Sequence record: MK327931.1
DNA: 64,000 nt
Direction: 5' to 3' (one strand)
From: Escherichia phage vB_EcoM_G17
Numbering within the stretch: the first letter of the stretch is position 1; each line of letters opens with the position of its first letter. Made by a program: the position numbers and the translations under genes. Below, piece after piece: positions 16,401-53,349 of the stretch. The notes under the pieces were generated by a model. The model was not told where the DNA came from. It ran no database searches and saw only the letters and a list, made by a program, of their open reading frames with translations.

Positions 16401-16447
16401 TTTATTTTACATCCTTGTTGTTGTCATATGACACATTATATCACAAA

Positions 16448-21650: not shown

Positions 21651-26908
<5,258 letters not shown>

Positions 26909-26953
26909 TCATTGATAATTATAGCACATCTTGAATCACTTTCCCAGATTTGA

Positions 26954-26968
26954 TAAATAATATCATAG
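26954..26968 (+). promoter_or_regulatory. Extended late-promoter-like element ATAAATAATATCATA
   Basis: Same 14-15-nt core as the elements upstream of the capsid and acidic core genes (reverse complement at 39637-39652 and 42402-42417). Confidence 0.45.
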
Positions 26969-27016
26969 AAATTCATTAAATATCTCAGTAAATTTAAATG
27001 CTAGTGATATTTTTTG

Positions 27017-27024
27017 ATAAATAA
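27017..27024 (+). promoter_or_regulatory. Late-promoter-like GATAAATA element
   Basis: Lies 46 nt upstream of the ATG at 27070; 7 of 8 match to TATAAATA. Confidence 0.35.
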
Positions 27025-27069
27025 CTTTAAGCAGGATATACCTGCACAAAATTTGACAAGGAGATTTTC

Positions 27070-27669
27070 ATGAGTCTTAATTCTTTTAACCGTAACTATG
27101 GTATGTCTAGCGTTGCTCGCGAATGGTGGGGTGGTAATAACGGTTTCGTTACCATCGTAATCGATCTACCAACTGATGTTGAACTAGGTACTACCAAAGT
27201 TACTTCTGACGGTTCTGATGTTCAAGCTGAAGCGTATCAAACTGCTCTAAGTAATGCTCAATATAACCTATTCATGGTTACCCAACTACTACAACAACGT
27301 GCAGTTCTAGTTACTACCTCTCTACTAGCTCTTGATTCAGAAGTTGTTATTCCTGCTGATTTCAAAAATGCTAATCCAAACGTAGTTGCATTCGGTACTA
27401 GTGGTGCTGATGTAGCAGGTGGTGCTAATTCTGTTGCATTGACTTTCATCTGTGAACGTCAAGACGTATTTAACAAGCAAGAAGTTCGTCCTGGTTCAGC
27501 ATGTCCTGCTCCAGTTGATCCAACTGTTGACCTAGCTAAGTCTATCGCTCAAGCTAAAGTTTTCCGTACCAAAACTTTCGTAAGTCAAGGTACTGATGGT
27601 GTTGGTGATGCAGGTGCATCTACTGCTGTAGCAATTAAAGTACGTGCTGCTCTTCCTGTTCAACTATAA
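27070..27669 (+). CDS. Abundantly expressed protein, paralog A (199 aa), unknown function
   Basis: AAGGAG SD 7 nt upstream; strong capsid-like codon bias (Leu CTA, Arg CGT, Gly GGT); paralogous to the next gene. Confidence 0.7.
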   Translation: MSLNSFNRNYGMSSVAREWWGGNNGFVTIVIDLPTDVELGTTKVTSDGSDVQAEAYQTALSNAQYNLFMVTQLLQQRAVLVTTSLLALDSEVVIPADFKNANPNVVAFGTSGADVAGGANSVALTFICERQDVFNKQEVRPGSACPAPVDPTVDLAKSIAQAKVFRTKTFVSQGTDGVGDAGASTAVAIKVRAALPVQL

Positions 27670-27683
27670 TAGGAGGATAGATT

Positions 27684-28373
27684 ATGTCATATACTAATAC
27701 TTCTTTTGAACGTATCAATGGTTATTCCTTTGAACGTATTCTAGGTTACTTTTGTGGCACTAACGCCCTAGCATCCATTGCTATCAGTAAGCTAGGAAAC
27801 GTAAACGTTCTAGTTACTGGTGCAGTTTCTTCTTATGCTGGTCTACAACGTTTTCTAAACACTGATATTCCAGAAGAAATTCTAGCATATCTAAATGATA
27901 AAGGTATCAAACGTATTGATGGAACTGCATTTGTTCTTGGCACACTAGAAGCTGATTACAATGCATCTTATGCAGCACAAACTAACGTTAAACGTATTGT
28001 CGATGTTGTTCAACAACGTGCGGTTATCATCGCTACCTCTAACATCGCAGGTAATGGTCTTGAAGTATTTCCAGTTACTGGTTTCACCAACGCACCTGAT
28101 GGTGTATTGAGTGCAGGTTCAGTTAGTATTGCTGATGCTTCCGTTGTAACCTTCCTAGTTGAACGTGCTGGTGTCTTTAACAAAGATCTTAAATCACCAC
28201 AAGGTGTACCAAGTACTGAATCCGAAGAAGGCCGTCTACTAATTGATGATCTAACTGGTGTTCCGCTACTTGCTAAAGATGGTGTTACTGAAGTTTATCT
28301 ACGTTCCCAGTCTGCTGATGCAGCAGGGGATTTCGGTGTTAAACTTTTCCAATACATCCCAGCATTGGTTTAA
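27684..28373 (+). CDS. Abundantly expressed protein, paralog B (229 aa), unknown function
   Basis: AGGAGG SD; shares VQQRAVIIATS / ERAGVFNK with paralog A (QQRAVLVTTS / ERQDVFNK); same codon bias; followed by a terminator. Confidence 0.7.
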   Translation: MSYTNTSFERINGYSFERILGYFCGTNALASIAISKLGNVNVLVTGAVSSYAGLQRFLNTDIPEEILAYLNDKGIKRIDGTAFVLGTLEADYNASYAAQTNVKRIVDVVQQRAVIIATSNIAGNGLEVFPVTGFTNAPDGVLSAGSVSIADASVVTFLVERAGVFNKDLKSPQGVPSTESEEGRLLIDDLTGVPLLAKDGVTEVYLRSQSADAAGDFGVKLFQYIPALV

Positions 28374-36647: not shown

Positions 36648-36956
36648 CTATAGCAAGTCGTTATCCATATCATCCCATACGGAATCAATAATGTTGGCTG
36701 CTATCTTTTTAGACATTTTAAACCACTCGGTATTGGGTTGTCTAGTTGCATTCATCTGCTTAAGCCTTTTATGTATTTCTTTTTCAGCCAAACGTGCATC
36801 ATCAAAATGAACTTCATGATATACTTCAAAGTCACGAAATGGTGTAGCAGTCTGATACGTTCTTAGACGTTCTGTCATTTCTGATTTTGAAGTAAAACCA
36901 ATTTTAACATACTCAGGCCATGCAGAATTTATTATAACATAACATATCTGTGACAT
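36648..36956 (-). CDS. T5orf172 / GIY-YIG-like domain protein (stand-alone)
   Basis: Start placed at MSQICYVIINSAWPEYVKIGFT (GGAGA SD); CYVII...KIGFT...RL..Y pattern typical of the T5orf172 family. Confidence 0.5.
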   Translation of the reverse strand: MSQICYVIINSAWPEYVKIGFTSKSEMTERLRTYQTATPFRDFEVYHEVHFDDARLAEKEIHKRLKQMNATRQPNTEWFKMSKKIAANIIDSVWDDMDNDLL

Positions 36957-36995
36957 AGATTCAATCTCCATCATTAATATGGAGATATTTATCTA

Positions 36996-37355
36996 TCAAC
37001 TAATAGTGAATTTCAAACCAATATCTATTAAACGTTGAAAAGGATTATGGGGCTGAAATTCAGAAGGTTCTTGTGTAATGTTTAGTACTGGAGCGTCTGA
37101 GTGTAATTGTGACATACGTTCCCTATAATGATCTATGTATTCTTCATATAACATATCTTCAGTATGTGTGTTTAGTATATCTTCTATAAAAGAATCTAAA
37201 CTATAATCCAATCTATCATCATTATAATACAATGTTTCAGTGGCTTCATCATATCCAACTAACGTACCATAAGGAACATTTATTTCTATATTTGAGTACT
37301 GACTCTTTAAGTACTCTTCTTTGTTAAATTTGTATACAGTTAACATCCGTGTCAA
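36996..37355 (-). CDS. Hypothetical protein (119 aa)
   Basis: ORF between the two T5orf172-type genes. Confidence 0.45.
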   Translation of the reverse strand: MTRMLTVYKFNKEEYLKSQYSNIEINVPYGTLVGYDEATETLYYNDDRLDYSLDSFIEDILNTHTEDMLYEEYIDHYRERMSQLHSDAPVLNITQEPSEFQPHNPFQRLIDIGLKFTIS

Positions 37356-37369
37356 CTCCTTTAGATTGT

Positions 37370-38293
37370 TTACTTAAAAGTATTTACAATTTCTAAAACA
37401 CTTTCAAGATACTTAGCATCAAATGTTTCAGTAAATCCTGACGGTAACTCTTCAGTACTTACAACACCACTTTCAATGTATTTCTTTATGAACTTTTCCA
37501 ACAGTAATGGTTGATTGCCATCTTCAAAGTAGCGTTCTACAAGTACTTCATGCTCGAACTCAGAATTGCGACTTTGTTCGTTTACACGGCGTTTCATATC
37601 ACCAGTGATTCCATACTTGTACACCGTCTTGTCATTGTTAGTTAGTTTTTGAACATAGAAATATCCAGGTTTTGATGGTTGATAACCATACTCACCACAT
37701 GATGGACATCCTCTTCCTGCCATATGAGATTTGGGTATTTGTTTAAAGACACCATGTTCAGGACAAATAATATCCACATGTTCATCACTAGTCTTGTAAT
37801 CCACCAAGCTATAATCATACTTATGGTTATGGATAGGCGACACAAGTTCAATGAAACGTTCAGTACTTCTTCCACCTTTACCAGAACATATTCCACAACT
37901 AGTTTTTCCTTTTAATAATGTTGCGGCTGATACTTCCCAATCATGCACATCATTCGGATCATTATGACATGTAACGATGACTCGCCCATTACTGTCACTT
38001 TGTTTTTTGTAGATAGTTTTCTCAAATGACAATGTTGGATGGATGGTTTTAACTTTTTCAATAAACGTTTCGGTCGTGTATGCTGTGTTTTTTTGACAAA
38101 TGTTACATCCTTTTGCAGAAGGTCGGACTATTTGCATAGGAGTGATTTTGAAATAATGACAACCTTCTACACAATAAAGTTCAACCTGTTTATGAGCATT
38201 AATATATACCATTTTATCAAACAAATACACACCAGTACCATACTTTTCATTCACTGCATTAATAAATTTTTCTTCATTTGGATTCATTGTCAT
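37370..38293 (-). CDS. Homing-endonuclease-like protein: three Cys/His zinc-ribbon-like repeats plus C-terminal T5orf172 domain
   Basis: Three ~60-aa repeats (FIEKV...IHP...Y.Y...V.I.C..HG.F......H..G.GCP.C); C-terminal KTVYKYGITGDMKRRVNEQ T5orf172-like domain. Confidence 0.5.
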   Translation of the reverse strand: MTMNPNEEKFINAVNEKYGTGVYLFDKMVYINAHKQVELYCVEGCHYFKITPMQIVRPSAKGCNICQKNTAYTTETFIEKVKTIHPTLSFEKTIYKKQSDSNGRVIVTCHNDPNDVHDWEVSAATLLKGKTSCGICSGKGGRSTERFIELVSPIHNHKYDYSLVDYKTSDEHVDIICPEHGVFKQIPKSHMAGRGCPSCGEYGYQPSKPGYFYVQKLTNNDKTVYKYGITGDMKRRVNEQSRNSEFEHEVLVERYFEDGNQPLLLEKFIKKYIESGVVSTEELPSGFTETFDAKYLESVLEIVNTFK

Positions 38294-38426: not shown

Positions 38427-39602
38427 TTACATGAAAGTAACGTTTTTGATAGCGATTTTGCTGTAGTAGTCAGCAGCGTTACCAAGAGAAGAAGTACTAT
38501 CAGTCAATTGTACATAACCATACCTGGTAAGGAAAGTTGTGACCAATTCCCCAGTGTTAGGGTCCATTACAGTACCGGAAGCCATTAGTGGGATGTATGG
38601 GCAATAGAACACACCAGCATCAGTTTCTGCATTACCTTTATAACCAATTAGAATATCTTCTGCATCACTTGCATAAGTATCAACAAAAATACGCATAGTG
38701 CTGTTTAGAGTACCTACAAACTTAACGTTAGTTGGGGCTTCGAAAGTACCTTCAGTGGTACGTGCAAAGCTAGAAGTAGTAGCAGATTGTAGAATGGTTA
38801 GTGCAGTTGGGGAAACAACAGCCCAGTTTGCAGCACCACGCTTAGTACGACGAGCAACTTCGTTTGCTTGACGGTTAATTAGAGTTGCTAGAGCAGCGTG
38901 CTCATCACCAACGAAGGTTGCAACACCAGTAACTTTAGATTGGTCATAAGTTACAGCAGCAGCACCAGGTAGTGCACGTAGACGGCTTAGTAGCTCTTGG
39001 TCGATTTCTACGGTAACTTCTTGAGCGATTGCAGCCATTAGTTCTGCTTCAACGTCAACACCATGTTGGGATTGTGCATCTTGTGCAGATTCAACAGTCC
39101 AACGTGCAGATAGACGACGAGATTTCGCTTCAACAGTTTCACGTAGAATACGGATGTTAACGCGACGACCCATAGTACCTTCTAGTTGGCTAGTAGGAGC
39201 AGCTTGTGGGTTGCTATTATCCGCATTTAGATCACCAGAGTAAGATTTAGCGATTTTGTATGGAGAAAGCATTTCTTCACCAGCGATTACACCAGGTGCG
39301 TTATCAGCATATTGTACACGTAGGGTGTGGATCTGACCAACTGGACCAGTCATAGGTTGAACACCGATGATTTCGTTAGCAATAACGGTTGGCATTACAC
39401 GACGCATAATTGGTAGAATCACTTTGTTTAGAGTAGCGATGTTACCAGCGGTAGTTGCACCAGAAGTTGCGGATTCAGTTAGCATAACTTTACGATGGTT
39501 ATCAAGAACAGTTTCCATTACAGACTTACGAGTACCCTGTAGACCTTCAACTAGTTTCTCTTTTACTGCTACCCATTTGGATTCATTTAGTAGTTGTGAC
39601 AT
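38427..39602 (-). CDS. gp23: Major capsid protein (T4 gp23-like)
   Basis: 391 aa. ...IANEIIGVQPMTGPVGQIHTLRVQY..., ...VEAKSRRLSARWTVESAQD..., ...IGYKGNAETDAGVFYCPYIPL... collinear with T4 gp23 as recalled; AAGGAG SD; strong codon bias. Confidence 0.88.
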   Translation of the reverse strand: MSQLLNESKWVAVKEKLVEGLQGTRKSVMETVLDNHRKVMLTESATSGATTAGNIATLNKVILPIMRRVMPTVIANEIIGVQPMTGPVGQIHTLRVQYADNAPGVIAGEEMLSPYKIAKSYSGDLNADNSNPQAAPTSQLEGTMGRRVNIRILRETVEAKSRRLSARWTVESAQDAQSQHGVDVEAELMAAIAQEVTVEIDQELLSRLRALPGAAAVTYDQSKVTGVATFVGDEHAALATLINRQANEVARRTKRGAANWAVVSPTALTILQSATTSSFARTTEGTFEAPTNVKFVGTLNSTMRIFVDTYASDAEDILIGYKGNAETDAGVFYCPYIPLMASGTVMDPNTGELVTTFLTRYGYVQLTDSTSSLGNAADYYSKIAIKNVTFM

Positions 39603-39636
39603 TATATATCTCCTTAAAGATGTTATATTCGTTTTT

Positions 39637-39667
39637 CAGTATGATATTATTTATAGAACTGAAAAAT
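39637..39667 (-). promoter_or_regulatory. Late promoter (TATAAATA) with extended conserved element, upstream of the capsid gene
   Basis: Minus-sense ...cagttcTATAAATAATATCATACTgaaaaa...; TATAAATA at 39647-39654, about 45 nt upstream of the ATG. Confidence 0.6.
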
Positions 39668-39693
39668 TTGATTATTAAAATGCTTTAAAATGT

Positions 39694-40809
39694 TTATTTT
39701 TTATTGATACCTGAAAGAACATCTAGTTCTTTTAGGAATGCCATATCGTCAGCGGTCATTTCTTCGCTTTCAACAATAGCCTGACGGTTGCCAGTGATTA
39801 CTTTACCTTCTGCAAGAGTTTTCTTAGCGGAAGACTGAACTGCTTGACGAGTGGTAGCAGATTCATTTACTTTAGTACCGTTAAGTACTGACTTATGGTA
39901 CTTGCTGAAATCTTCTTTAAGCTTTTCAGTAGGTGAAGTAGCTAGAAGGGATTCCATAATTTGTTTTTGCTGTGCAGTTAGTGGTTTTACTAGTTCAGAC
40001 ATAATCGCATTACGTGCTTGTGCATCTTCCATAATACGTAGTTTGGTTTTAGCAGCTTTAACGGCATTAGCAGTTTCATGTAGTTCTTGCTTAACTTGAG
40101 CAATTTCATCTTCTTTAGATTTAATTGATTCAGTTAGGGAACGTAGCAATGAGTTTTCATTAAATTGTTTGACATTAAACTCTTGAGCAAATGCTTCAAA
40201 GATTTTACGACCAAACATATTTTGTTTTGCTTCCACTAGATCTTGTTTCAACGCATATAGATTCTTCTGAGTGGTTTCTGCAATATATTTAGCAGCACTT
40301 TCAGATGTACGTTTGATGAAGTTATTACGAGCTTCAGCAATTTGACGTGAACCTTCAGCAAGTAGTTTAACGCGAGTTTCTACTAGTTGGCGTTTTTCAG
40401 TGTGGAATTCTTTTAGCTCTTCTGCTAGGATACCGTTAGAAAAATTAACGAATTTACCCATGCATTCATGAAGATGCTTACGTTCTTTACGCATTTGTTT
40501 AACTTCTTCAGCCAAAACAGAGTTTGAAAACGCAGAGAAATTGCTTAGTGTTTTACGTAGAGTTACACGATCTTCAACGAGACGTTTTTTCTCTTCATAT
40601 ACAGCACCCATTTCTTCAGCAATGACTTGAGTAACCATCGTGTTCAAACCTTCGGTTAGTTCAGCCAAATCTTGCTGATAACGGCCTTTCATTTCTTCAC
40701 GCATCTCTGCGGCTAGTGTATTCTTTTCTTCATTCCATGCTTCCTGAATTAGCTGTTTTGCCTCATCAGAAAGAGATGATTCTTTTAGAAGCTTTTCTAA
40801 TTTAGACAT
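39694..40809 (-). CDS. gp22: Prohead core scaffolding protein (T4 gp22-like)
   Basis: 371-aa coiled-coil-rich E/K/A/Q protein between the protease and capsid genes; AAAGGAGA SD. Confidence 0.6.
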   Translation of the reverse strand: MSKLEKLLKESSLSDEAKQLIQEAWNEEKNTLAAEMREEMKGRYQQDLAELTEGLNTMVTQVIAEEMGAVYEEKKRLVEDRVTLRKTLSNFSAFSNSVLAEEVKQMRKERKHLHECMGKFVNFSNGILAEELKEFHTEKRQLVETRVKLLAEGSRQIAEARNNFIKRTSESAAKYIAETTQKNLYALKQDLVEAKQNMFGRKIFEAFAQEFNVKQFNENSLLRSLTESIKSKEDEIAQVKQELHETANAVKAAKTKLRIMEDAQARNAIMSELVKPLTAQQKQIMESLLATSPTEKLKEDFSKYHKSVLNGTKVNESATTRQAVQSSAKKTLAEGKVITGNRQAIVESEEMTADDMAFLKELDVLSGINKK

Positions 40810-40856
40810 TCGTTCTCTCCTTTAAGTACTGAAATATCTGTACTTCAACATACAGA

Positions 40857-40864
40857 TATTTATA
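40857..40864 (-). promoter_or_regulatory. Late-promoter-like TATAAATA upstream of the scaffold gene
   Basis: Plus-strand tatttata, about 50 nt upstream of the scaffold ATG. Confidence 0.45.
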
Positions 40865-40875
40865 TTTTTAAAATG

Positions 40876-41499
40876 TTAACCTTTTAATTTCTTGAAAAAA
40901 TCGTATATTTCAGAATCTAAATTATTTACTTTTTTAGATTCAGTGATTTTTTTAGAACTATTACAAGGTGATCCGTACTTACTCATCAGAGATTCAAATA
41001 CCGCTGTTGGGTATGCTTCTGGAGCACTAGGTTGAGCAACAATATCAATAGTGATAATTTCAAAATCAGAAACTATTCCATTATAATCAACGTTACCGGA
41101 ACCGCGAGAACTTACACCAAGTTTTACACCAGCCTCTAGCATTTTACGGATATTCTGACCATGTGCAGTATCAAGTAGTTTGATTTCTGCCATACCATTA
41201 GCACCTTCCATCCAAACCTTAGTAATCATTGCTGCTACACGGTCTAGGTTAATAGTTAGTGTTTCTGGATGGTCACATTCAACAAGAATGCTTTCACCTT
41301 TAGCTAAACGCTGGTTCATGTTATTTACTGCCCTTGTAATTTCAGATAAAGGGTAAATTCTCTCGTTCAAATTTCGTTGGTCGGCTTGAATAGCAATACC
41401 ACGAAGATAGCAGTCACGCCCACCAAATCCATTATCACGATGTTCCAAAACAACTTTAGAATCATTGAATGAAGACCATTCACGAATCATACTACTCAT
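40876..41499 (-). CDS. gp21: Prohead core protease (T4 gp21-like)
   Basis: 207 aa; position between core proteins and scaffold; ...ECDHPE..., ...GVSSRGSG...; AAAGGAG SD. Confidence 0.6.
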   Translation of the reverse strand: MSSMIREWSSFNDSKVVLEHRDNGFGGRDCYLRGIAIQADQRNLNERIYPLSEITRAVNNMNQRLAKGESILVECDHPETLTINLDRVAAMITKVWMEGANGMAEIKLLDTAHGQNIRKMLEAGVKLGVSSRGSGNVDYNGIVSDFEIITIDIVAQPSAPEAYPTAVFESLMSKYGSPCNSSKKITESKKVNNLDSEIYDFFKKLKG

Positions 41500-41519
41500 A
41501 ATGATCTCCTTTCAGATAT

Positions 41520-42368
41520 TTATTTTAGTTTAGGTTGTGCTTTGCTTAGTGGTGATTTAGAATTAGATGCAGTAGTTTTTGGTGCTTTAACATCTTTCAT
41601 TTCACCGCGAGCATTTTTACCAAGATCTAGGCTATCTTTTGGTAGAACAGATTTATCATCTAGGTCTAGTAGTGGGGCTTGGTCAGTTTTCTTAGCGAAT
41701 TTAACTGGCTCTGCTCCTGCTACTGGAGATTTAGCTTCTGGTGCTACTGGAGATTTGGAATGAGTGCCAGCTTTTTCTTTCTTATCAACTGGAGCAACTT
41801 TTTCTAGTTTGAAGGATTCACCGAATTTTTCATCGCCGAATTCAACATCAGCAAATTCGTCGTCACCGTCAACACCAACTTCTTCTTCGCTATCTTCTAC
41901 TTCTTCTTCAGAATCTAGATCAACTTCACCGTCACCGATTTCATCAAACATTTGTTGTAGGCCACGGAAAGCATCTTGGATTGATTCCCATTGGTCTTCG
42001 GAAGGAACATCAGCATCAGCTTTCACTTCAACGTCAACATCGTCTTCACCGTCACCATCTGCATCAGCAGAGAATTCAACTTCTTCTTCTGCACTTTCAT
42101 CTTCTTCACCAAGGGTGTATTCGATTTCAGCATTTAGACCTTCGTCTGGTTGTACATCAAAATCTTCGTCAAGCTTTTCTTCATCTTTGACTTTAACTTC
42201 GACTTCACAATCTTCATCGTCGTCTTCATCTTCCATGCTTTCTTCTAGTTGTTTGTTAATTTCTTGAGCTTGCTCAACGAAATACTTACGCATTTTTTTA
42301 TCAGCAATATCTTGTTCGCCATTTGCAAACGCCGCAATTGCTTCTTGTAGTAGTTTTAAATTCGCCAT
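41520..42368 (-). CDS. Highly acidic prohead core / internal protein (gp67/gp68-position)
   Basis: Start placed at MANLKLL (GGAGGA SD); long D/E-rich segments; between portal and protease as the T4 core proteins. Confidence 0.5.
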   Translation of the reverse strand: MANLKLLQEAIAAFANGEQDIADKKMRKYFVEQAQEINKQLEESMEDEDDDEDCEVEVKVKDEEKLDEDFDVQPDEGLNAEIEYTLGEEDESAEEEVEFSADADGDGEDDVDVEVKADADVPSEDQWESIQDAFRGLQQMFDEIGDGEVDLDSEEEVEDSEEEVGVDGDDEFADVEFGDEKFGESFKLEKVAPVDKKEKAGTHSKSPVAPEAKSPVAGAEPVKFAKKTDQAPLLDLDDKSVLPKDSLDLGKNARGEMKDVKAPKTTASNSKSPLSKAQPKLK

Positions 42369-42401
42369 TATATCCTCCATAGATATATTACATTCGTATA
42401 A

Positions 42402-42431
42402 AGTATGATATTATTTAGTACTGAATAAAAT
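42402..42431 (-). promoter_or_regulatory. Late-promoter-like element (CTAAATAATATCATACT) upstream of the acidic core gene
   Basis: Shares the core agtatgatattattta plus actgaa(a/t)aaaat with the capsid-gene upstream element at 39637-39667. Confidence 0.45.
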
Positions 42432-42469
42432 CGCCTTTTTTAAAAGCTTTAAAAAGTGCGATTTTCGGT

Positions 42470-42697
42470 TTACATTAACCCAGAACCGTCACCTGTTGGT
42501 GCAGCGGCATAAACAACTGCAACCACATTTTTGCGGCGTTGTTCTTCATGTGCTTTAAATTCACGGTACTTTCTTAAGTTGTTTAATACTTGTAATGTTA
42601 GTTTCGGTTTTCTGGAATCAGTAATTTTATATACGTTCTGATCATCTTCAGGGTCGTACATTGAATCACTGCTAGATTCAAAGATGTCCTTTAACAT
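42470..42697 (-). CDS. Small hypothetical protein (75 aa), possible prohead core component
   Basis: ATG with AAGGAG SD; directly downstream of the portal gene. Confidence 0.4.
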   Translation of the reverse strand: MLKDIFESSSDSMYDPEDDQNVYKITDSRKPKLTLQVLNNLRKYREFKAHEEQRRKNVVAVVYAAAPTGDGSGLM

Positions 42698-42711
42698 TTG
42701 ATCTCCTTGAA

Positions 42712-42748
42712 ATATGCATTATAAATGAGGGTAAAAATAAACCCTCAT
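42712..42748 (-). terminator. Stem-loop after the portal gene (attenuator or terminator)
   Basis: atgagggt-aaaaataa-accctcat stem followed on the minus strand by UUUAUAAU. Confidence 0.35.
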
Positions 42749-42770
42749 TCTTATACATTGTTATTTATGT

Positions 42771-44510
42771 TTAAAAAGAATTGCCTAAATTATTAGGGTC
42801 GAAACCACCACTTCCACTCTGTTGCTCTTGGTATTCGGCATCAGCACTTTCCAAATTACCTTCTCCATCAATACCAAGATCCATTCCAGGATCATTTGGA
42901 GCATCAATACCAACAGACTGCAATCCTGCGGAATCTTCTTCACCACCAGAAGGTTGGGAACCATCTTGTGGATTCTCTTGTAACCACATTTGTTCATTCT
43001 TAACAATATCAGCTTTAGAAAAGCCCATTTTTTCAAGAATTGTTTGTTTTGCCATATAAGGCAAGTCATTAAGAGGAAGATATGTATTAATTAGTTTAGC
43101 ATCTAGTTCAGCTTTACGATAAGAAGCTAAGTTAATAGGTGGATTCATAATAACTTCAAAAGATGAAGTACTAATGTTATATCCATTTTTAACCATAAAT
43201 CTTTTGAATTCAGCATCAAAATGTTTTGCAACTAAACGTTGATAACGCATACATTGATTATTGAATCGCAATTCACTTGCCATAGCTTGTGTAGCACCAT
43301 CACCAAATAATGAAACACCACCATCATCTGGACCTTGTGGTAGATATGAAGCTGGTATTTGAAGACCACGAATCAATTTATTATTGAAATAACGTAAGTC
43401 ATCAATTTGTCCTAAGTTATCACCGCCTGGTAATGTTTGAACATCTGAACCACGACCTTCAGAAGTTTGTGGGAAAAAGTAGTCTTCTAAAATGCTTAAT
43501 GGATTATACGCTGCATCCATTAGTGAAGTACTTCCACCTTTGTTTGAAGGTATTCTACGCTGGTGGATTTCATTTTTAAATCTTTCAACATAAGCCATCG
43601 CTTGGTGTGCTTGCATATCACCAACATCAATTTTAAATACACGACGCTCAGGTGCACGTTGTACACGATAAATTATGATACTATCTTCCAGAAGTTCTTT
43701 TTGCTTATAGACTTTAAATACGTCCTCAAGTATACTAGTACCAAAAGGCCATACCCCATCTTGTCCTGTATTTAGTGTTAGATGAATTACGTGTTCTGCA
43801 CCAACAGGAATAACGTCTAATTGACCGTTAGTACTGAATGGGTCAGCCGTATTTCCTTGACTTGTAAAACCAGATGCACCACCAGCAGCTACTGAACCAC
43901 CACCACCCATTGTTGTTGGAATAGCTCCTGGATAAGCGGTTTTATCAAATCCTACTTGAAGGTTACTAAAAACTTTATCTTTCAAATTTAATGATACGTC
44001 ACGTATATAATAAATTACTGGTGTTTTACCAGTGGCTTCGTTAACAAATACTTGCTCAACATTTTTGGGACTTACCCAATACCAATCGAATGTTTCTGGA
44101 TCTCGAATGAAAAATTGATCACCATATTTCAGAAGACCACGCACAATTTCATACATTCGTGTTTTAAAATCATTTTGTTCAGTCCATGCATCTAAACGAT
44201 CTTCAATAGTCGTTACTTCAGTATCACCAATATCATCTTTATATTTGATTTTATATGGTAAACCAAAATCTTCAGTACTTTGAGTACAAAAGTCAGCAAT
44301 TATATTCAATGCAGTTCTAATTTCAGGATCTTGGTCCATTTGCTCATACTGACTATAACGCTCAGTACGATTTGCCAATCCATTATATACAACAGGAAGA
44401 TAGGAAGCGAAATTTGTTTTCGTTCCTGTTGATTTATTGCTATTACTGGACTGATTTGGGATGGTCGATAGTTTAGACCTTCCCACTGTCATATGTCGTT
44501 TCCAACTCAT
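42771..44510 (-). CDS. gp20: Portal vertex protein (T4 gp20-like)
   Basis: 579 aa; position upstream of core, protease, scaffold and capsid genes; acidic C-terminus; AAGGA SD. Confidence 0.65.
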   Translation of the reverse strand: MSWKRHMTVGRSKLSTIPNQSSNSNKSTGTKTNFASYLPVVYNGLANRTERYSQYEQMDQDPEIRTALNIIADFCTQSTEDFGLPYKIKYKDDIGDTEVTTIEDRLDAWTEQNDFKTRMYEIVRGLLKYGDQFFIRDPETFDWYWVSPKNVEQVFVNEATGKTPVIYYIRDVSLNLKDKVFSNLQVGFDKTAYPGAIPTTMGGGGSVAAGGASGFTSQGNTADPFSTNGQLDVIPVGAEHVIHLTLNTGQDGVWPFGTSILEDVFKVYKQKELLEDSIIIYRVQRAPERRVFKIDVGDMQAHQAMAYVERFKNEIHQRRIPSNKGGSTSLMDAAYNPLSILEDYFFPQTSEGRGSDVQTLPGGDNLGQIDDLRYFNNKLIRGLQIPASYLPQGPDDGGVSLFGDGATQAMASELRFNNQCMRYQRLVAKHFDAEFKRFMVKNGYNISTSSFEVIMNPPINLASYRKAELDAKLINTYLPLNDLPYMAKQTILEKMGFSKADIVKNEQMWLQENPQDGSQPSGGEEDSAGLQSVGIDAPNDPGMDLGIDGEGNLESADAEYQEQQSGSGGFDPNNLGNSF

Positions 44511-44521
44511 TATTTTCGTCC

Positions 44522-46726
44522 TTAACTGTTTCTCTCACCTTGAGTGTTTTCAGAGATAGTTCTTAGATAGTTATTTGTCTGTTGCACAGCAGATAGAGAT
44601 TGCTCATTAACATCAGCAAGTTTTTTAAGTAACTCTTTCATGTCTTCTGATATTGTGGCATTATTATTAGCATTTGCCATACTACTACCACTATTTATCA
44701 TCGCTTTCATGGACTCATAATCGTCCGGTTCAGCTTGAATTGGTAGATCATTTGGTCCCCATGCTGATTTGTCAAATGTTTTTGGAGTTATCGTTACATA
44801 TGGTGCAACATGTTCAGATTTTTCAATTCTCGCAGTAGCTCTTGGCTTATTTTCAAGACCACTACTAATAAGTTTTTCAGCAACTGATTCATCAAGGGGT
44901 TTTGGTTGTTTAAAGTTTCTACTTGAATTCCATTTTAAAAAACCATCAAATGAACTAGAAATATAATCACCAAATGAATTCATTTTTTCTTCAAAATAAT
45001 TATTAACTTTTTCTGCACCATCGGTAACAGAATTGTTTTCTACTTTTACTTTGTCGTCTGAACCACCAAACCAACCTTTAACAGAATCCCAAAGTTTACC
45101 AGGAAGATCCATTAGGTTATTCATAAAGCTATCAAATGCTTCTGAAACTTTATTATATCCACTACCAAAAATTTCAGTACCTAACCCTTCTAACCACTGC
45201 TCAAACTCACCACCAATCCTATCCAAATACGCAACTGCATCTTTCGCAATAGGAACCAAACCAAAACCATCAAGTGCTAACTCTCCGATAAATTCCCATG
45301 CACCATCAGTACGGTCTGCAATATCAGTAAGGTAATCCGCAATAGAATTTTGTGTATCTGCATACATTTTATTAAATGGTTCAGTAAATTCTTTACTAAT
45401 CCATCTATTGAATCTATCCGTGAATTGTGTTAGTTTATCTGCTGGTTGACTCTTAGGATCATTAATCGCAGCTTCCATATCAAGTAGCTGTTGGTTGAAG
45501 GTTGCTGCTGTAGTGTTTCCTAATTGTATCTGATTTAATAAATCTTGCTTTATTAGTTCTTTGTTCTTTTTAACAAATTCCAATTGTTGACGGCGAATTT
45601 CTTGTGAATCAGTAACACCACTACGTACCAAGTTCTCACCTAAATCAGCAAATTGGTTCAGTACTGGAGTCAATAAATCATCTGGTACTCCACCAATAGT
45701 TAAACGATGTGAAATTAAACGTAGAAAATCTGCACCAGCATCACCCATACTGGCAGCCGCTTCGTTAAATGCTTTTGATGTTGCAACTGCTGCTTTACTA
45801 GATAATCCAGAATAGTTTTGTAATGCGATTTGCATTGAACGTGTGTCTAATGATTTATCTAAGTTTTGTGTTTTATTTAATAGTGCATCAACTGACTCAC
45901 CCATGCTTTTACTGAACTTAGTCATGCTCATGATAAACTGTTCAGTACTTTTTGCTTGATCCATACTACGTAACATTTCTCTTCCACCAAATTGCTTTTG
46001 GAATTTAATATTACGTGCAGTTAAATCAGTTAATGTTTTTTGTGAAACACCATATAAACCTAATTGATTTTGTGCTTGTTGCACAGTACCCAATAATTTA
46101 CCAAATGTAGAAACACCATCACCATATGCACCATCTAATTGTGCAACAACGGCACTATGAGTTTGTAATGCTTCACCAAATGCATCAATACTCATCATTG
46201 ATGCACCAGCACCTTTTAATATGGAGCCGTAACCTTCAGATAGAGCGACACCAGCACTGTTTATTCTATTATAAACTTCAAGCTGTGCATTTAACACATT
46301 ATAAACTGCTAAACCAGCGTCAGCAACCAATTTGAAGGCAGATGCTGCTGCACCAACTGGACCTGGGATCATTGCTAATGAACCAGCAAATGAAGATGCA
46401 CTCATTCCTAGTGAGTTTACAACATTGCTAACGTTTGCAGACGTACTCATCATAGTTTTGCCGACATTCGATACTTCAGATGATAATGATTTAAATATTT
46501 TTCCAAATTCTTTACCATCATCAGCTTTGTTATTTGTTCGAGAGCCACGGTTTCCAGTACTTGATGAATTACTTCCATTACGTTTTCCACTTTTAGAACC
46601 GGATTTCTTTCTATCATTTTTTATATTTTCAGCCAATAACTCACGTATAGCACTCAAACTATCGTTGTTATCTTTAGTTTGATTAACCAACTGCTGGAGT
46701 AGGTAATCACTTGTATTTCCAGCCAT
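44522..46726 (-). CDS. Large low-complexity helical virion protein (tape-measure-like or internal/ejection protein)
   Basis: 734 aa, Ala/Gly/Ser/Gln-rich with basic S/N/G-rich N-terminus; AAAGGGAA SD; directly precedes the portal gene. Confidence 0.35.
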   Translation of the reverse strand: MAGNTSDYLLQQLVNQTKDNNDSLSAIRELLAENIKNDRKKSGSKSGKRNGSNSSSTGNRGSRTNNKADDGKEFGKIFKSLSSEVSNVGKTMMSTSANVSNVVNSLGMSASSFAGSLAMIPGPVGAAASAFKLVADAGLAVYNVLNAQLEVYNRINSAGVALSEGYGSILKGAGASMMSIDAFGEALQTHSAVVAQLDGAYGDGVSTFGKLLGTVQQAQNQLGLYGVSQKTLTDLTARNIKFQKQFGGREMLRSMDQAKSTEQFIMSMTKFSKSMGESVDALLNKTQNLDKSLDTRSMQIALQNYSGLSSKAAVATSKAFNEAAASMGDAGADFLRLISHRLTIGGVPDDLLTPVLNQFADLGENLVRSGVTDSQEIRRQQLEFVKKNKELIKQDLLNQIQLGNTTAATFNQQLLDMEAAINDPKSQPADKLTQFTDRFNRWISKEFTEPFNKMYADTQNSIADYLTDIADRTDGAWEFIGELALDGFGLVPIAKDAVAYLDRIGGEFEQWLEGLGTEIFGSGYNKVSEAFDSFMNNLMDLPGKLWDSVKGWFGGSDDKVKVENNSVTDGAEKVNNYFEEKMNSFGDYISSSFDGFLKWNSSRNFKQPKPLDESVAEKLISSGLENKPRATARIEKSEHVAPYVTITPKTFDKSAWGPNDLPIQAEPDDYESMKAMINSGSSMANANNNATISEDMKELLKKLADVNEQSLSAVQQTNNYLRTISENTQGERNS

Positions 46727-46814
46727 AACATTCCCTTTTAATAGATGTATTATAGAAATATTTATGAAACTATAGAGAATATAAAAATTAGTTTAATTTA
46801 ATCTTTTTTGGTCT

Positions 46815-46822
46815 TATAAATA
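46815..46822 (+). promoter_or_regulatory. Late promoter TATAAATA
   Basis: Exact TATAAATA 35 nt upstream of the ATG at 46857. Confidence 0.5.
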
Positions 46823-46856
46823 CTAAAACACATTTATTACATGGAGATTTAATAAA

Positions 46857-47693
46857 ATGGCTATGAATCCACTTGCTAAGTACACTAAAATTGAAGAGAT
46901 CAGTACTAAGTTAGTTACAAACGGCGTTATTCCTTATAAAGAAGGAGTTCTAGGTCCAAAAGGTGTCAAATGTGGAGTTTGTGCACGTAGTGCACGTGAT
47001 GAAATGACACTTAATACCCCCGATATGTTACTAAACGGAGATGCAGTATCCCGTGTTATTGAAAACTGTGTTCCTAATGTAATTGACGCTGATGAGTTGT
47101 ATGTAAATGACGTTGAAATGCTTCTTATTGCTATTAAAGTTGCTTCCAAAGAAGAAACATATGATATTAACGTTGTATGTCCTGAATGTGAAAAAGAAGG
47201 TCGATTTGAGCGTAATCTATCATATCTTCTTGAAACTGCACAAGCATTTGAAGAAATCCCATCAATTGATTTAGATAATGGACTCCGTTTAGAATTTAGA
47301 CCACTGACATGGAAAGAATATTCATCGTTTGCTGAACGCATGTTCAGTGAGCAGCAGAAGACTAAGTTTCTTGAAACTGCTGATATTGATAAAGATGAAA
47401 AAGTAAAAATATTTTCTGAAGTATTTGAAAACATGGCTCAACTTAACTTCGACATGATCGGTGGAGTTATTGCAAAAATTATAACACCAGATGGTGATGA
47501 AGTAGTTGAAAAAGAATTTATTAATGAATGGCTTGGACAACAATCGAAGGGAGTACTTAAACTAATTCGTGAAAAAATGGATGAAGTACTTGAAATTGGA
47601 GTATCACATAGTATGGAAGTAGAATGTGATGGATGTAATCATCAATGGGAAATTGATGGACTAAAATATGATCCTAGTCATTTTTTCGAGTAA
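46857..47693 (+). CDS. Hypothetical protein with two CxxC pairs
   Basis: 278 aa; CGVC...CPECEKEG and CDGCNH; TGGAGA SD; preceded by a late-promoter element. Confidence 0.5.
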   Translation: MAMNPLAKYTKIEEISTKLVTNGVIPYKEGVLGPKGVKCGVCARSARDEMTLNTPDMLLNGDAVSRVIENCVPNVIDADELYVNDVEMLLIAIKVASKEETYDINVVCPECEKEGRFERNLSYLLETAQAFEEIPSIDLDNGLRLEFRPLTWKEYSSFAERMFSEQQKTKFLETADIDKDEKVKIFSEVFENMAQLNFDMIGGVIAKIITPDGDEVVEKEFINEWLGQQSKGVLKLIREKMDEVLEIGVSHSMEVECDGCNHQWEIDGLKYDPSHFFE

Positions 47694-47902
47694 TGCTTCT
47701 CCAGTCATCTCCTGAAGAAATACAAGAAGTACTGAAGGAGATAGAACTGAATAAGTCAGAAATCAAAAATGCACTAATGGAATGTTCTGTATATATGGAT
47801 AACATTGACTATGGAACACTCCTTAATATGCCATTAATAGATAGAGACTTATTAGTTAAGTCTTTTAATAAAAAAATTAAAAAACAAAACGAGAAGCACT
47901 AA
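47693..47902 (+). CDS. Hypothetical small protein (69 aa)
   Basis: Start overlaps the upstream stop (TAATG); followed by a strong terminator. Confidence 0.45.
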   Translation: MLLQSSPEEIQEVLKEIELNKSEIKNALMECSVYMDNIDYGTLLNMPLIDRDLLVKSFNKKIKKQNEKH

Positions 47903-47911
47903 TTTTCATAT

Positions 47912-47938
47912 AGCCAGCACATTGTTGCTGGTTTTTTT
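47912..47938 (+). terminator. Rho-independent terminator
   Basis: ccagca-cattgt-tgctgg stem followed by a run of seven T. Confidence 0.7.
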
Positions 47939-47939
47939 G

Positions 47940-48737
47940 GTTTTAAACTACAGAATTATTTGAATTGAATTATGAAAGGATTAATTTTAATATTATTGGA
48001 TTCATCTAACTCATTTCATTCGTTAGCTGAAGAATATTCGTTACTACGTAACTCATATTCATTTAATTAAATTAATTATAAAGAACTTTAAAAGATTTAA
48101 TACTTGACGGGATTTGTTGAGGACATTTTCATCCCCCCGCAGGGGAATGAAGACAATAAAAAAGAGACAATGAAGTCTCTATTTCTTGACGCTGATGGTT
48201 TCAGCATTTATTGTATTGCGAATTTCTTAAAAATATATTAAGAACGAAAGCGGGTTGCTCTGTTTCTCTCTATCGCAGTCATGTGCAACGGTCGTCAGTC
48301 TTAATCATCCTGACACTCACCTGAAAGTCTATACAATCAAACTTCAGGCTGTTTATTAAAATCACTTAATAAACTCCCTTAGCAAATCTGGTAAGGTGCG
48401 ATCCTTATATGTCTATCGAGGAACTCTCTGTATGCTTATCGGAGTTCTTTATTGAGCCGCATTGCCGTGAGGGGTTCAAACTATGCCCACATCTAACGGG
48501 TTTCTTTTGCTCATCGCACTGTTGAACTGCTCATCTGCCATCTACATTTTCGATAGGATCAGGTTCTAATTTATATGCATTTCTGCATTCAACAGGATTG
48601 TCATTACTACAACAAACATTATAGCACAAACTTTAAAGTTGTCTCACTATTTTTATAAAAATATTCATTAAGTACTTAAAATATTGCAAATAACTAATCT
48701 ATAAATATTTTGATAACAAATAGTTTGGTGAGGAATT
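47940..48737. other. ORF-free, hairpin-rich intergenic region of about 0.8 kb
   Basis: No ORF of 60 aa or more on any frame; local GC about 40-50% at 48120-48540 against about 30% in flanks; several perfect short inverted repeats. No tRNA cloverleaf could be drawn. Confidence 0.5.
48700..48707 (+). promoter_or_regulatory. Late promoter TATAAATA upstream of the Endo VII-like gene
   Basis: Exact TATAAATA 31 nt upstream of the ATG at 48738; GAGGAA SD. Confidence 0.5.
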
Positions 48738-49229
48738 ATGAAAAAAAGATTAAAAGATAGTAAGGATGCTGCAAACTATCGAAACGAATTACTAAAGAAA
48801 CAAAATGGAATAGATCCTATAATTAAAGAACCAATAACTAAACCAGTACTGGATCACTACCACTATGGTAACCAACATTGTAGACAAGTTCTTCAAAATG
48901 AAGTCAATGCTTGGGAAGGAAAGGTACAAAACAGCTTCAATCGATATATGAAGCACTTAACTGATAAACCATTATATGAGGTACTCAGAAATCTTGCTGA
49001 TTACTTAGAGCGTAATAACAGCATTCCTGACGATGAACAAGTTATACATCACACTGCACTAACTGTGGATGTTAATAAGTTTAAAAGGCTTCCAGCAACA
49101 CAGCAAAACGCGATTCTGGAAGGGTTAGGAGTTGTCCCTGGTAGTAACACTACTGCTCGTGTAAAGCAAGCCAGAAAGCTGATTAAGGACGGTAAATTAA
49201 ATATGGTTGATATAAAAAAAGGGAGCTAA
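48738..49229 (+). CDS. gp49: Endonuclease VII-like Holliday-junction resolvase (T4 gp49-like), zinc ligands apparently replaced
   Basis: 163 aa. QNGIDPII / VLDHYHY / NEVNAWEGKVQNSFNR parallel T4 Endo VII QNGKCLIC / HLDHDHE / NLCNAAEGQMKHKFNR as recalled; the four Zn-ligand Cys positions read D, I, Q, V here. Confidence 0.55.
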   Translation: MKKRLKDSKDAANYRNELLKKQNGIDPIIKEPITKPVLDHYHYGNQHCRQVLQNEVNAWEGKVQNSFNRYMKHLTDKPLYEVLRNLADYLERNNSIPDDEQVIHHTALTVDVNKFKRLPATQQNAILEGLGVVPGSNTTARVKQARKLIKDGKLNMVDIKKGS

Positions 49230-49245
49230 GGCTCCCTTTATCTTT
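49211..49245. terminator. Bidirectional terminator between convergent gp49-like and gp46 genes
   Basis: aaagggagc-taag-gctcccttt stem flanked by an A-run and T-rich sequence; the gp49-like stop codon lies in the loop. Confidence 0.6.
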
Positions 49246-49247
49246 AA

Positions 49248-51403: not shown

Positions 51404-52435
51404 TTATAACGATCTGTAAATTTGGATTAGAAGATTTTTATCAAACATTGGTGAATCAATTTCCATAATTTGCTGCAAAACTATCTCATCAACTGATTCA
51501 GTACTTTCAAAACTAACACCATCTTCGATTAATTCTGAAATACTTTGCTTGCTTGTCACAACATTAAACTCTCTAATGTTATAAAGTTTAGTAAATGTAT
51601 CACGAATAAAACTAATCTCATCAGTTGTTATTGATATATCAACTTGAACTTTTGATATTGTGTTATCTTGTAGATAATAGCTTGGATCAGTCAACAATTC
51701 AGAAAGTGTGAATGTTCTATATTTTGGTGCATTATCCCATGACTTGAAAATAGGTTCTTTGCCATGTTCAAGAATCATCACACCTCTTGCATCATCCCAT
51801 GTATCGGAAAAATTATGTGGAAAACAATTACCAGTATAAACTACACGAGTTCCTTTTGAAGTTGTTTTTGACTGTCGTTTATGAAAATGTCCACTAAAAA
51901 CATACTCACATCCACCAAAAGAACCTTCTGTTTCTTTTCCATGATCAGGCATTTCTACCATCTTGTTAAGCAAGTAACCTGGTAACTCTAAGTGACCAAA
52001 AACATACTTACTTTTTAGTTGAGGTAACAACTTATATTCATCTTCAATCATAAATGGAATGAAAGTACAATCATCAAAGGTTGTAATTTCATTAATGAAT
52101 TCTATATTTTCATAAACTTGAGCCATATTGATACTTGTTATATCACGTTTGTTTTTATGATACATATCATGGTTGCCGACTAAAAAATATACTTTTTCAA
52201 AATTATCATTTAATAATTGAAGAATTTGTAAACCATAGTTTAGTGTTTGAATATTGATATTACTTCTATTATGAAAATAATCTCCCATAAAAACACAAAC
52301 TTTGATATTATTTTTTTTAGCTACATCAATCATGAATTTAATGAAGTTTAAACAATCTTCATTGTGTTGCTTGCTGTTATTCTTTAAACCTAAGTGAATA
52401 TCAGTGAATGTAATTGCTTTATCAAACAGAGCCAT
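51404..52435 (-). CDS. gp47: Recombination endonuclease subunit gp47 (Mre11/SbcD-like nuclease)
   Basis: ORF-track start is TTG; ATG at 52435 (MALFDKAITFTDIHLG) has an AAGGA SD. Phosphoesterase motifs DIHLG, GDYFH, GNHD, GHFH. Confidence 0.85.
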   Translation of the reverse strand: MALFDKAITFTDIHLGLKNNSKQHNEDCLNFIKFMIDVAKKNNIKVCVFMGDYFHNRSNINIQTLNYGLQILQLLNDNFEKVYFLVGNHDMYHKNKRDITSINMAQVYENIEFINEITTFDDCTFIPFMIEDEYKLLPQLKSKYVFGHLELPGYLLNKMVEMPDHGKETEGSFGGCEYVFSGHFHKRQSKTTSKGTRVVYTGNCFPHNFSDTWDDARGVMILEHGKEPIFKSWDNAPKYRTFTLSELLTDPSYYLQDNTISKVQVDISITTDEISFIRDTFTKLYNIREFNVVTSKQSISELIEDGVSFESTESVDEIVLQQIMEIDSPMFDKNLLIQIYRSL

Positions 52436-53261
52436 CTTCATTTTTCCTTTCAATCATGTTCAATTCAATTTCAATTTGACGTGTATGTGATGGCGTAAAG
52501 CCATGCATTTCAAGTAAATCATCACGTATATTTCGAACATTTTTCTCACTATTCAATATAGAACGAAAACTATTGTTTACGAATGATGTATAGTAAGAGA
52601 AAGGATTTAGCTGAACTGCTGGTTTATCTTTTTTATAAAGAATGCTCTCTTTAAAGAGAAGTGCGTTTTTAACTAATTGTATTCTTGCATCACCCATCAT
52701 TTCATCTAAGTATGTATAGTTTCTGTAATTAGATTTATGAGAGATTTCCTCAGCAAGTTTAATGAACATCTTCCCTAGTTCATTTGTAATTTTACCATGA
52801 ACAGTACTGAATTCACCAGTTTCAAGATCTCCTTTCCAATGAGAACGACATACTTCATAGAGAATTCCTTCATTATCTACAATGTAATGCTTGAATGGTT
52901 CAAAGTTAACTCTAGTGTCGGGTGGAATATGTTCATCAGTGATAACACGAATAACAACTTCATCGATTGGAACATCAGTGATAACTAAATTATTTTCATC
53001 TGCATATTCTTTAGCTTTTTTAGCACTCATACTTTCCTTTTCACGAATACTATCAAGCATTTCATTGTTTAGTCGTTTGATTCGTGCTGCTTTGGCTTTT
53101 TCAAGTAACTCAGTAGTAATTTCTGACTCATGAAAAACAATATAATCATACATACTATATGATTTGTCTAATAACCAGCAGTATGAAATCTTACTTTTTT
53201 GTATTTCACGAAGTAAATCAGCATTATTGAGATACTTTTTACGCTTTGGCCTATTTGTCAT
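52422..53261 (-). CDS. gp55: Late-transcription sigma factor (T4 gp55-like)
   Basis: N-terminus ...KKYLNNADLLREIQKSK... parallels T4 gp55 ...PKYNYVNNKELLQAIIDWK... as recalled; synteny 55-47-46 as in T4. 279 aa, longer than T4 gp55. Confidence 0.6.
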   Translation of the reverse strand: MTNRPKRKKYLNNADLLREIQKSKISYCWLLDKSYSMYDYIVFHESEITTELLEKAKAARIKRLNNEMLDSIREKESMSAKKAKEYADENNLVITDVPIDEVVIRVITDEHIPPDTRVNFEPFKHYIVDNEGILYEVCRSHWKGDLETGEFSTVHGKITNELGKMFIKLAEEISHKSNYRNYTYLDEMMGDARIQLVKNALLFKESILYKKDKPAVQLNPFSYYTSFVNNSFRSILNSEKNVRNIRDDLLEMHGFTPSHTRQIEIELNMIERKNEDGSV

Positions 53262-53349
53262 TGTATTTTACTCTCCATGTTTAAATCCAATAGGTACAAT
53301 CCTTGTACCATCAATGTTATTATAGCACCAAAAAGCATTTTGTCCCACG

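Follow-up and report, generated by a model that had tools for sequence, protein, structure and literature searches.

The 14-nt element TAAATAATATCATA, located upstream of virion-protein genes of an Escherichia coli jumbo phage, is best read, at a probability of about 0.6, as an extended late promoter composed of a core, an easily melted spacer and an initiator. Its three exact copies would represent the best matches to the form preferred in Asteriusvirus. In the window (the whole 64,000-nt stretch of DNA analysed), these copies lie at 39640-39653 (-), 42404-42417 (-) and 26954-26967 (+), compared to 0.00 matches in 100 dinucleotide-preserving shuffles. The initial annotation had proposed that the upstream regions of the capsid gene, an acidic protein gene (gp359) and an islet of paralogs share an element longer than the core, and the exact 14-mer is indeed present at all three. 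A search for this motif across the whole 350,079-bp genome, which had been suggested as a check, retrieved the same three copies and no other; all are intergenic and directed at a downstream virion-protein gene (capsid, gp359 and gp341/342). Internally, the 14-mer has no symmetry, dyad or repeat.

The phage, with E. coli as host, a genome of 350 kb and an A+T content of 66%, belongs to the 121Q/RaK2-like jumbo phages. The capsid region is 100% identical to that of Escherichia phage Sharanji and at least 99% identical to those of 121Q, PBECO4, slurp01 and phAPEC6. Genome-wide counts were made on the Sharanji genome (OR545507.1, Asteriusvirus, 350,079 bp), assembled from annotated pieces and the window, with identical overlaps; adding 143,630 to a window position gives its Sharanji coordinate. 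These statistics rest on heuristic gene calls (664 ORFs vs. 592 annotated features), which give an intergenic fraction of 8.6%. The promoters and genes discussed below are the following.

39640..39655 (-), site A, late promoter of the major capsid protein: core TATAAATA at 39655-39648, extension ATATCATA at 39647-39640; start predicted from the T4 core rule at the A at 39642; capsid ATG at 39602
38427..39602 (-), major capsid protein gene, served by site A
42404..42418 (-), site B, late promoter of virion protein gp359: core CTAAATA at 42418-42412, ATATCATA at 42411-42404; predicted start at 42406; gp359 ATG at 42368
41520..42368 (-), gp359 gene, acidic virion structural protein, served by site B
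26952..26967 (+), site C, distal late promoter of the gp341/gp342 pair: GATAAATA plus ATATCATA; predicted start at 26965, 105 nt ahead of the ATG at 27070
26918-26926 (-), middle-type promoter TGCTATAAT of the divergent RNase H-like gene, back to back with site C
27016..27045 (+), proximal gp341 late promoter GATAAATAACTTTAAG (predicted start at 27029) and 5'UTR hairpin, without the ATATCATA extension
27031-27045 (+), 5'UTR hairpin GCAGGatataCCTGC of gp341, directly after the proximal promoter
27070..28373 (+), gp341 and gp342, paralogous virion proteins that both match phrog_9326, served by site C
23024..23037 (-), site D, one-mismatch copy TAAATAATATTATA upstream of virion protein gp336 (ATG at 23002); predicted start at about 23026
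52422..53261 (-), gene of gp368, a gp55-like late sigma (279 aa), presumed reader of the ATAAATA promoters

The proteins served by these sites are found in virions. In phAPEC6, mass spectrometry (MS) detected gp228c, the counterpart of gp359, as well as gp210 and gp211, the counterparts of gp341 and gp342, with a coverage of about 70%. When up to two mismatches are allowed, eight copies of the 14-mer are counted vs. 3.2 ± 2.0 expected, so degenerate copies are mostly noise. Two one-mismatch copies nevertheless occupy real promoter positions: site D, where the TAA of the core is the stop codon of the terminase, and a copy outside the window, at Sharanji 273177-273190 (-), upstream of an Rz-like spanin. 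Sites A, B, C and D are found at the same positions and next to the same neighbour genes in Ecwhy_1, WPEC5, RaK2, GAP32 and fENko-Kae01.

The core, as a T4-type late promoter, is the part already known. The late core of this phage family is ATAAATA and not TATAAATA, the core that the initial annotation had assigned to all three regions. The latter holds for site A only (39648-39655), with aCTAAATA in its place at site B and GATAAATA at site C. ATAAATA has 53 copies in the genome, 32 of which fall within the intergenic 8.6%; 31 of these are correctly oriented, with 30 placed 17-65 nt before a start codon. The base preceding it is a T in just 10/28 late promoters. Upstream of the cores of these 28 promoters, a T-rich tract was the sole informative feature, and no -35-like signal was found. 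Across the genome, words that include TAAATA are rarer than expected (TAAATAA: 69 copies vs. about 252 expected). The genes behind the late promoters (capsid, gp359, gp341/342, gp336, tail tube, sheath, spanin and baseplate) have virion or lysis functions, and the virion proteins are confirmed by the phAPEC6 MS data. For the relatives CBB and GAP32, a late motif consisting of ATAAATA “with a concentration of A and T downstream” was proposed earlier (PMC5259590). Taken together, the distribution of the core, the lack of a -35 element, the depletion of TAAATA words, the gp55-like sigma gene and the CBB/GAP32 motif identify these sites as T4-type late promoters.

The CBB/GAP32 prediction concerns the same phage group, core and gene class, and its published description ends at the 7-mer. 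In the present comparison, the bases that follow can be divided into a spacer specific to the lineage and a YAYA at the start site, kept across genera. Apart from the CBB paper, no late-promoter literature was found for this phage group, and the literature searched contained no transcript 5' ends or expression levels for 121Q/RaK2-like phages. With the late promoters of T4, the sites share an A/T-only -10-type element without a -35 element, a position ahead of virion and lysis genes, and a phage-encoded sigma factor of the gp55 family. They differ in that the first T is not conserved and a preference for ATAT and YATA(C) is visible downstream. The T4 late core lies at -13 to -6, and its first T is variable in other T4-like phages too (PMC1524935). 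Late promoters of Aeromonas phage Aeh1 have CTAAATA from -12 (PMC1524935); the core of site B is an Aeh1-type variant, the single exception among the ATAAATA promoters of Sharanji. In other genera, the gp359 promoter has a core of (A/T)TAAATA, except in RaK2, where it is also CTAAATA.

The gp55-like sigma matches phrog_12791 (“sigma factor for late transcription”, E = 2e-154) and phrog_234 (“late sigma transcription factor”, E = 8e-18), and its WPEC5 orthologue is annotated as “55 superfamily”. It is about 100 aa longer than gp55 of T4, which has 185 aa, and its match to the T4-type family is confined to residues 125-262. Neither a phmmer search against the PDB nor a Pfam search with this protein gave any match. 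In T4, late transcription uses the gp55 sigma and is activated through gp33 and the gp45 sliding clamp, which couple it to replication. Homologues of gp33 and gp45 were not found by the CBB authors (PMC5259590). The gene at window 29710-30441, a putative clamp gene, has a fENko-Kae01 orthologue annotated as similar to RB69 gp45 (HHpred); it belongs to a PHROGs family of unknown function and had no phmmer match in the PDB.

A second promoter class was observed in this genome, with (T/G)GAGACAA or GGGACAA followed, after about 13-15 nt, by TG(C/A)TATAAT. It precedes replication genes as well as the gene of the late sigma and resembles the “divergent RpoD-like” motif of CBB and GAP32 (PMC5259590). 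Its sites in the window, all on the minus strand, are listed here.

53319-53327 (-), second promoter class
48618-48626 (-), second promoter class
26918-26926 (-), second promoter class
21687-21695 (-), second promoter class
21611-21619 (-), second promoter class
16435-16443 (-), second promoter class
11581-11589 (-), second promoter class
5192-5200 (-), second promoter class

The eight bases that extend the core probably consist of an AT-rich spacer, ATAT, and a start-site motif, YATA(C), spanning the predicted -5 to +3. In T4, the core occupies -13 to -6, which makes +1 the sixth base downstream of it. With this spacing carried over to the present promoters, ATAT would occupy -5 to -2, C-A would fall on -1/+1 and T-A(-C) on +2 to +4. 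This sixth base is an A in 20/28 other Sharanji late promoters and in 36/39 distinct versions of orthologous promoters. YATA placed four bases past the core (-1 to +3) was counted at 11/44 promoter sites vs. 9/172 other TAAATA sites (p = 3e-4), and at 18/44 vs. 14/172 when a shift of ±1 nt was allowed (p = 9e-7). The spacer is also associated with promoters. TAAATAATAT, the core plus ATAT, has eight copies in the genome, seven of them at late-promoter positions (7/46 promoter TAAATA sites vs. 1/183 other sites, Fisher test, p = 6e-5). An 8-nt downstream consensus common to all late promoters was also considered and rejected, as only the A at the sixth position is informative. Bacterial promoters follow start-site and discriminator rules, with a pyrimidine at -1, a purine at +1 and a core recognition element, which were defined for the sigma-70 holoenzyme. 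The conserved C-A / T-A would fall on the predicted -1/+1 of these rules, although their sigma-70 origin may not carry over to a gp55-like holoenzyme.

The seven TAAATAATAT promoters serve the capsid, gp359, gp341/342, gp336, tail tube (phrog_4542) and spanin genes and the gene of a 14-kDa virion protein (75% MS coverage), a set which fits a strong subclass. The initial annotation had suggested a stronger late-promoter subclass or a binding site for an extra late factor. The extended element does exist and marks a subclass, given the seven of eight TAAATAATAT copies at late promoters and the enrichment of YATA; that it is a stronger one is judged only from the kinds of gene served. The sheath gene, which encodes one of the two most abundant virion proteins, has a promoter without the ATAT spacer, and the spanin gene has a near-exact motif. 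Nothing points to an extra factor: the 14-mer is free of symmetry or repeats and its extension covers the predicted -5 to +3, where RNA polymerase acts. As noted at the outset, the promoters at 46815, 48700, 53350 and 59389 lack the extension. A degenerate form, TAAATA-N4-YATA, occurs at other late promoters of the window (46751, 60350, 36978 and 12618).

The comparison across genera was based on Ecwhy_1, WPEC5, RaK2, GAP32, fENko-Kae01 and IMG/VR contigs. As the search of IMG/VR with gp341 gave two loci only, GenBank relatives were taken instead, and more distant capsid relatives at or below 69% amino acid identity had no promoter directly upstream and were thus uninformative. The capsid promoter appears as ATATCATAC, ATAACATAC, AAAGCATAC and AAGTATAC, with the spacer and start reading ATAT-CATAC, ATAA-CATAC, AAAG-CATAC, AAG-TATAC or ACTT-TATAT, and TAAATA-A-N3-YAYA is kept in nine distinct versions. 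The gp359 promoter appears as ATATCATAC, ATGACATAC and AGGACATAC (ATAT-CATAC, ATGA-CATAC, AGGA-CATAC and CTA-CATAT), and sheath promoters have A-N3-TATA in 7/7 distinct versions. In these three sets, the spacer drifts while YAYA stays. Among the 39 versions, most of those from capsid, gp359, distal gp341, gp336 and sheath promoters have YAYA, which is missing from the tail tube and proximal gp341 promoters. The ATAT spacer is confined to Asteriusvirus, where five orthologous promoters carry it; the spacers of the relatives are varied, with TATT or CATT at tail tube orthologues and ATAA or AAAG at capsid orthologues. Exact identity of the 14-mer is likewise limited to Asteriusvirus.

At the gp341 locus, conservation across genera is higher for the proximal promoter than for the distal one. 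When Sharanji is compared with Ecwhy_1/WPEC5, the region separating the two promoters is strongly diverged, unlike the distal promoter block. The stem of the leader hairpin is kept and its loop varies (GCAGG-atata-CCTGC, GCAGG-gtgtt-CCTGC); in RaK2 the stem sequence differs too, with GTAAG-gtgaaaa-CTTAC among the variants.

In the proposed mechanism, the phage gp55-like sigma would direct the host RNA polymerase to a -10-type core, (A/C)TAAATA, without a -35 element. The ATAT at -5 to -2 would be the stretch melting between the core and the start, C-A at -1/+1 the start site and T-A-C at +2 to +4 the first transcribed bases. The form preferred in Asteriusvirus would then be ATAAATA-ATAT-YATA(C), and exact copies would probably give efficient opening, a fixed purine-initiated start and a short unstructured leader; the capsid leader is predicted to be unstructured (-1.8 kcal/mol, z = +0.8). 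We infer the start sites, the effect on strength and the absence of a further protein from sequence. Read in this way, the element refines a known promoter type and a new regulator is not needed to explain it. This provides a sharper, testable model of late promoters in 121Q/RaK2-like jumbo phages (ATAAATA, a 4-nt spacer and YATA(C), with explicit predicted starts), useful for annotation and for choosing strong late promoters for engineering. It suggests a gp55-type holoenzyme with lineage-specific preferences downstream of the -10 element, and leaves the general picture of T4-type late transcription unchanged.

The identity of sites A and B extends beyond the motif. Both are embedded in similar intergenic regions.

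39600..39693 (-), capsid cassette, from the gp357 stop codon to the capsid ATG
42366..42469 (-), gp359 cassette, the whole upstream intergenic region

Between the preceding stop codon and the ATG, the two cassettes match at 74/94 positions (about 79%; local alignment score, 113 vs. 58 ± 5 for shuffles), and the resemblance takes in the leader just ahead of the ribosome-binding site. As the similarity covers the whole intergenic region, the identity of A and B does not count as independent evidence; the two regions may be related cassettes, with part of the identity inherited. By eye, the gp359 cassette of Kae01, GAP32 and RaK2 contains a terminator-like stem (CCGTTTT…AAAACGG in Kae01) and a T-run, then the promoter and a short leader with a ribosome-binding site. 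In Sharanji, the consensus scan flagged no terminator at the gp359 cassette, and sigma-70 and terminator scans of 39400-42800 gave nothing above the shuffle expectation.

It could be argued that the bases beyond ATAAATA are functionless and shared by descent only, through duplication or short-patch gene conversion of a promoter cassette. Besides the A/B similarity, the restriction of exact 14-mer identity to Asteriusvirus would agree with this, as would the gp106-114 paralog array, which duplicates cassettes with their genes, including near-identical TAAATAtagtataatgaataaaggaggg leaders. This explanation is nonetheless unlikely. The promoters of sites C and D, the tail tube, the spanin and gp489 have TAAATAATAT without any flanking similarity, YAYA stands at a fixed distance in orthologous promoters of at least five lineages while the spacer varies, and both YATA and ATAT are enriched at promoter over non-promoter TAAATA sites.

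The array itself, which encodes RCC1-like paralogs (Sharanji 40786-50127 (+), outside the window), has a cassette, ttgtatTAAATAtagtataatgaataaaggaggg, that recurs almost unchanged 26-27 nt ahead of every start codon, indicating that promoter and leader units were duplicated together with genes in the Sharanji genome. T4-type phages are also known for mobile promoter cassettes (PeSL-like), repeated units of a promoter and a stem-loop at variable positions, flanking shuffled genes. Sites A-D do not belong to this type, as they keep constant positions in five relatives and flanking similarity is common to A and B only.

Another reading, also improbable, is that the extension is not a polymerase site: a late DNA-binding regulator could bind it, or the first bases of the mRNA (AUAC...) could act after transcription, e.g., in stability or translation. 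Sites A and B change together within a genome, with YATATT at both in RaK2 and GTAC-TAAATA-N3-GTACAA at both in contig L020. This co-variation fits either gene conversion between the two sites or a lineage-specific preferred start region, and is equally expected if the polymerase and sigma of each lineage have a preference of their own. The roughly 100 additional residues of the sigma, outside the family match at 125-262, would leave room for an extra DNA contact. Against this reading, the 14-mer lacks dyads and repeats, no candidate factor emerged and no Rfam family matched anywhere in the window. A Pfam search of ten neighbouring proteins gave no match. The leaders of the capsid (39616-39624 (-)), gp359 (42381-42389 (-)) and sheath (Sharanji 255316-255324 (-)) genes share ACGAAT(A/G)TA, which might be taken as a post-transcriptional signal; these account for 3/13 copies in the genome. 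However, it is kept across genera at the sheath gene and is Asteriusvirus-specific at capsid and gp359, and as a genome-wide motif it was rejected (13 copies vs. about 11 expected).

Site A differs from the other sites by an inverted repeat bracketing the promoter. The initial annotation had described ttcagt and actgaa as flanks common to A and B; they are instead the two arms of this repeat, complete at site A only. Site B has just the upstream arm (attCAGTAC), followed downstream by no more than ACT.

39658..39666 (-), 5' arm TTTTTCAGT of the repeat on either side of the capsid promoter
39632..39640 (-), 3' arm ACTGAAAAA, at the predicted +3 to +11 of the capsid late mRNA

The repeat is perfect over 9 bp and, as single-stranded DNA, has a predicted folding energy of -5.7 kcal/mol (z = -3.5). 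The arms were enumerated directly in the capsid promoter versions, because the distance from arm to core shifts between lineages; a repeat of 5-9 bp is present in 9/9 distinct versions, and its inner bases co-vary (CAGT/ACTG, CTGT/ACAG, TTGT/ACAA). No bracketing repeat is found at sites B, C and D. Flanking repeats were rejected as a general late-promoter trait, the longest having a mean of 5.1 bp at 44 promoters, 4.6 bp at other TAAATA sites and 4.8 bp for shuffled flanks. The only outliers are site A, with 9 bp, and the gp292 promoter, with 15 bp. The latter, at Sharanji 135457-135530 (-) and outside the window, has a perfect 15-bp inverted repeat, AAAAACTCCAAGATT … AATCTTGGAGTTTTT, whose loop contains the core and which is followed by a T-run. 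It resembles a terminator hairpin that carries a late promoter in the loop, the layout of the capsid promoter in a stronger form.

Each arm of the capsid repeat is similar to one half of CAGTACTG, the 8-mer with the highest over-representation in the genome, and in RaK2 an intact CAGTACTG adjoins the core of the capsid promoter. The capsid late promoter might be a structure-dependent element, its core lying in the loop of a co-varying repeat with arms that, in Sharanji, look like a ttttCAGTACTGaaaa palindrome split by the promoter. It would act either on DNA, by extrusion that pre-opens the promoter or as a site for a palindrome-recognising protein, or on RNA, by marking read-through transcripts for processing. 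We regard this as quite unlikely; if true, it would add a layer of late control not known in T4.

Chance recurrence of an AT-rich word in a genome with 66% A+T, for which only the lack of significant enrichment of copies with up to two mismatches (8 vs. 3.2) speaks, is practically excluded: 100 shuffles gave 0.00 matches compared to three exact copies, which are the only ones in 350 kb and all lie between genes in the correct orientation.

The CAGTACTG sequence, an iterated palindrome, has 199 copies in 350 kb vs. about 3.4 expected (58-fold), 19 of them in the window (e.g., at 3793, 5896, 26428, 36562, 52802 and 60373). These copies are mostly inside genes, in all three reading frames, with flanks that are T-rich on the 5' side and A-rich on the 3' side, and the sequence is also enriched in Ecwhy_1, RaK2, GAP32 and fENko-Kae01. 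AGTACT, with 903 copies vs. 119 expected, is the sole strongly enriched 6-bp palindrome; no paper on CAGTACTG or on the over-representation of AGTACT was found in the literature.

In T4, read-through RNA of genes e, soc, 49 and I-TevI folds into a hairpin that prevents its translation, with a late promoter placed within the 5' strand (PMC3014915). The capsid promoter resembles this arrangement in that its core is enclosed by conserved inverted-repeat arms, so that a hairpin is possible in read-through RNA only. It differs in that the 3' arm covers neither the ribosome-binding site nor the AUG, ending 23 nt before GGAG, and it is thus not a translational hairpin of the gene e type. Sequestering of the ribosome-binding site as in gene e is seen not at site A but at gp353 and the sheath gene.

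Upstream of gp353, a T5orf172-domain protein, window 36954-36997 (-) shows a T4 gene e / I-TevI-like arrangement. A hairpin, AUCUCCAU…AUGGAGAU (-14.2 kcal/mol, z = -1.9 vs. shuffles), includes the late promoter GATAAATA (36993-36986) in its 5' strand and buries the Shine-Dalgarno sequence, while an outer stem buries the AUG at 36956. As the predicted late start, 36980, is inside the stem, only read-through RNA would be blocked. The annotated start at 36974 has no ribosome-binding site, which makes 36956 the more likely start. At the sheath gene (Sharanji 255289-255365 (-), outside the window), AATCCTCCAA, just upstream of the late core, and the ribosome-binding site TTGGAGGATT, which follows about 50 nt later, are complementary. 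In 10/10 distinct versions, the 10-bp pairing predicted for them is near-complete, with four pairs invariant and the others broken in at most two sequences; C-to-U changes preserve G-U pairs, and the pairing can be formed by read-through RNA only. The sheath leader also contains a conserved palindrome, CGAATATTCG.

Directly downstream of the capsid gene lies a gene for an HNH-type endonuclease (37370-38293 (-); phrog_681, E = 8e-63), with a TTGACA-like box and a TAATAAT -10-like box just upstream of it. An endonuclease gene is found downstream of the capsid gene in RaK2 as well, and not in GAP32. Finally, several 6-bp palindromes are absent from the Sharanji genome, with 8-32 copies expected for each: CTCGAG, CGTACG, CCATGG, AGGCCT, AGCGCT, CCCGGG, CCGCGG, CGCGCG and GGTACC. 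This pattern looks like strong restriction-site avoidance.
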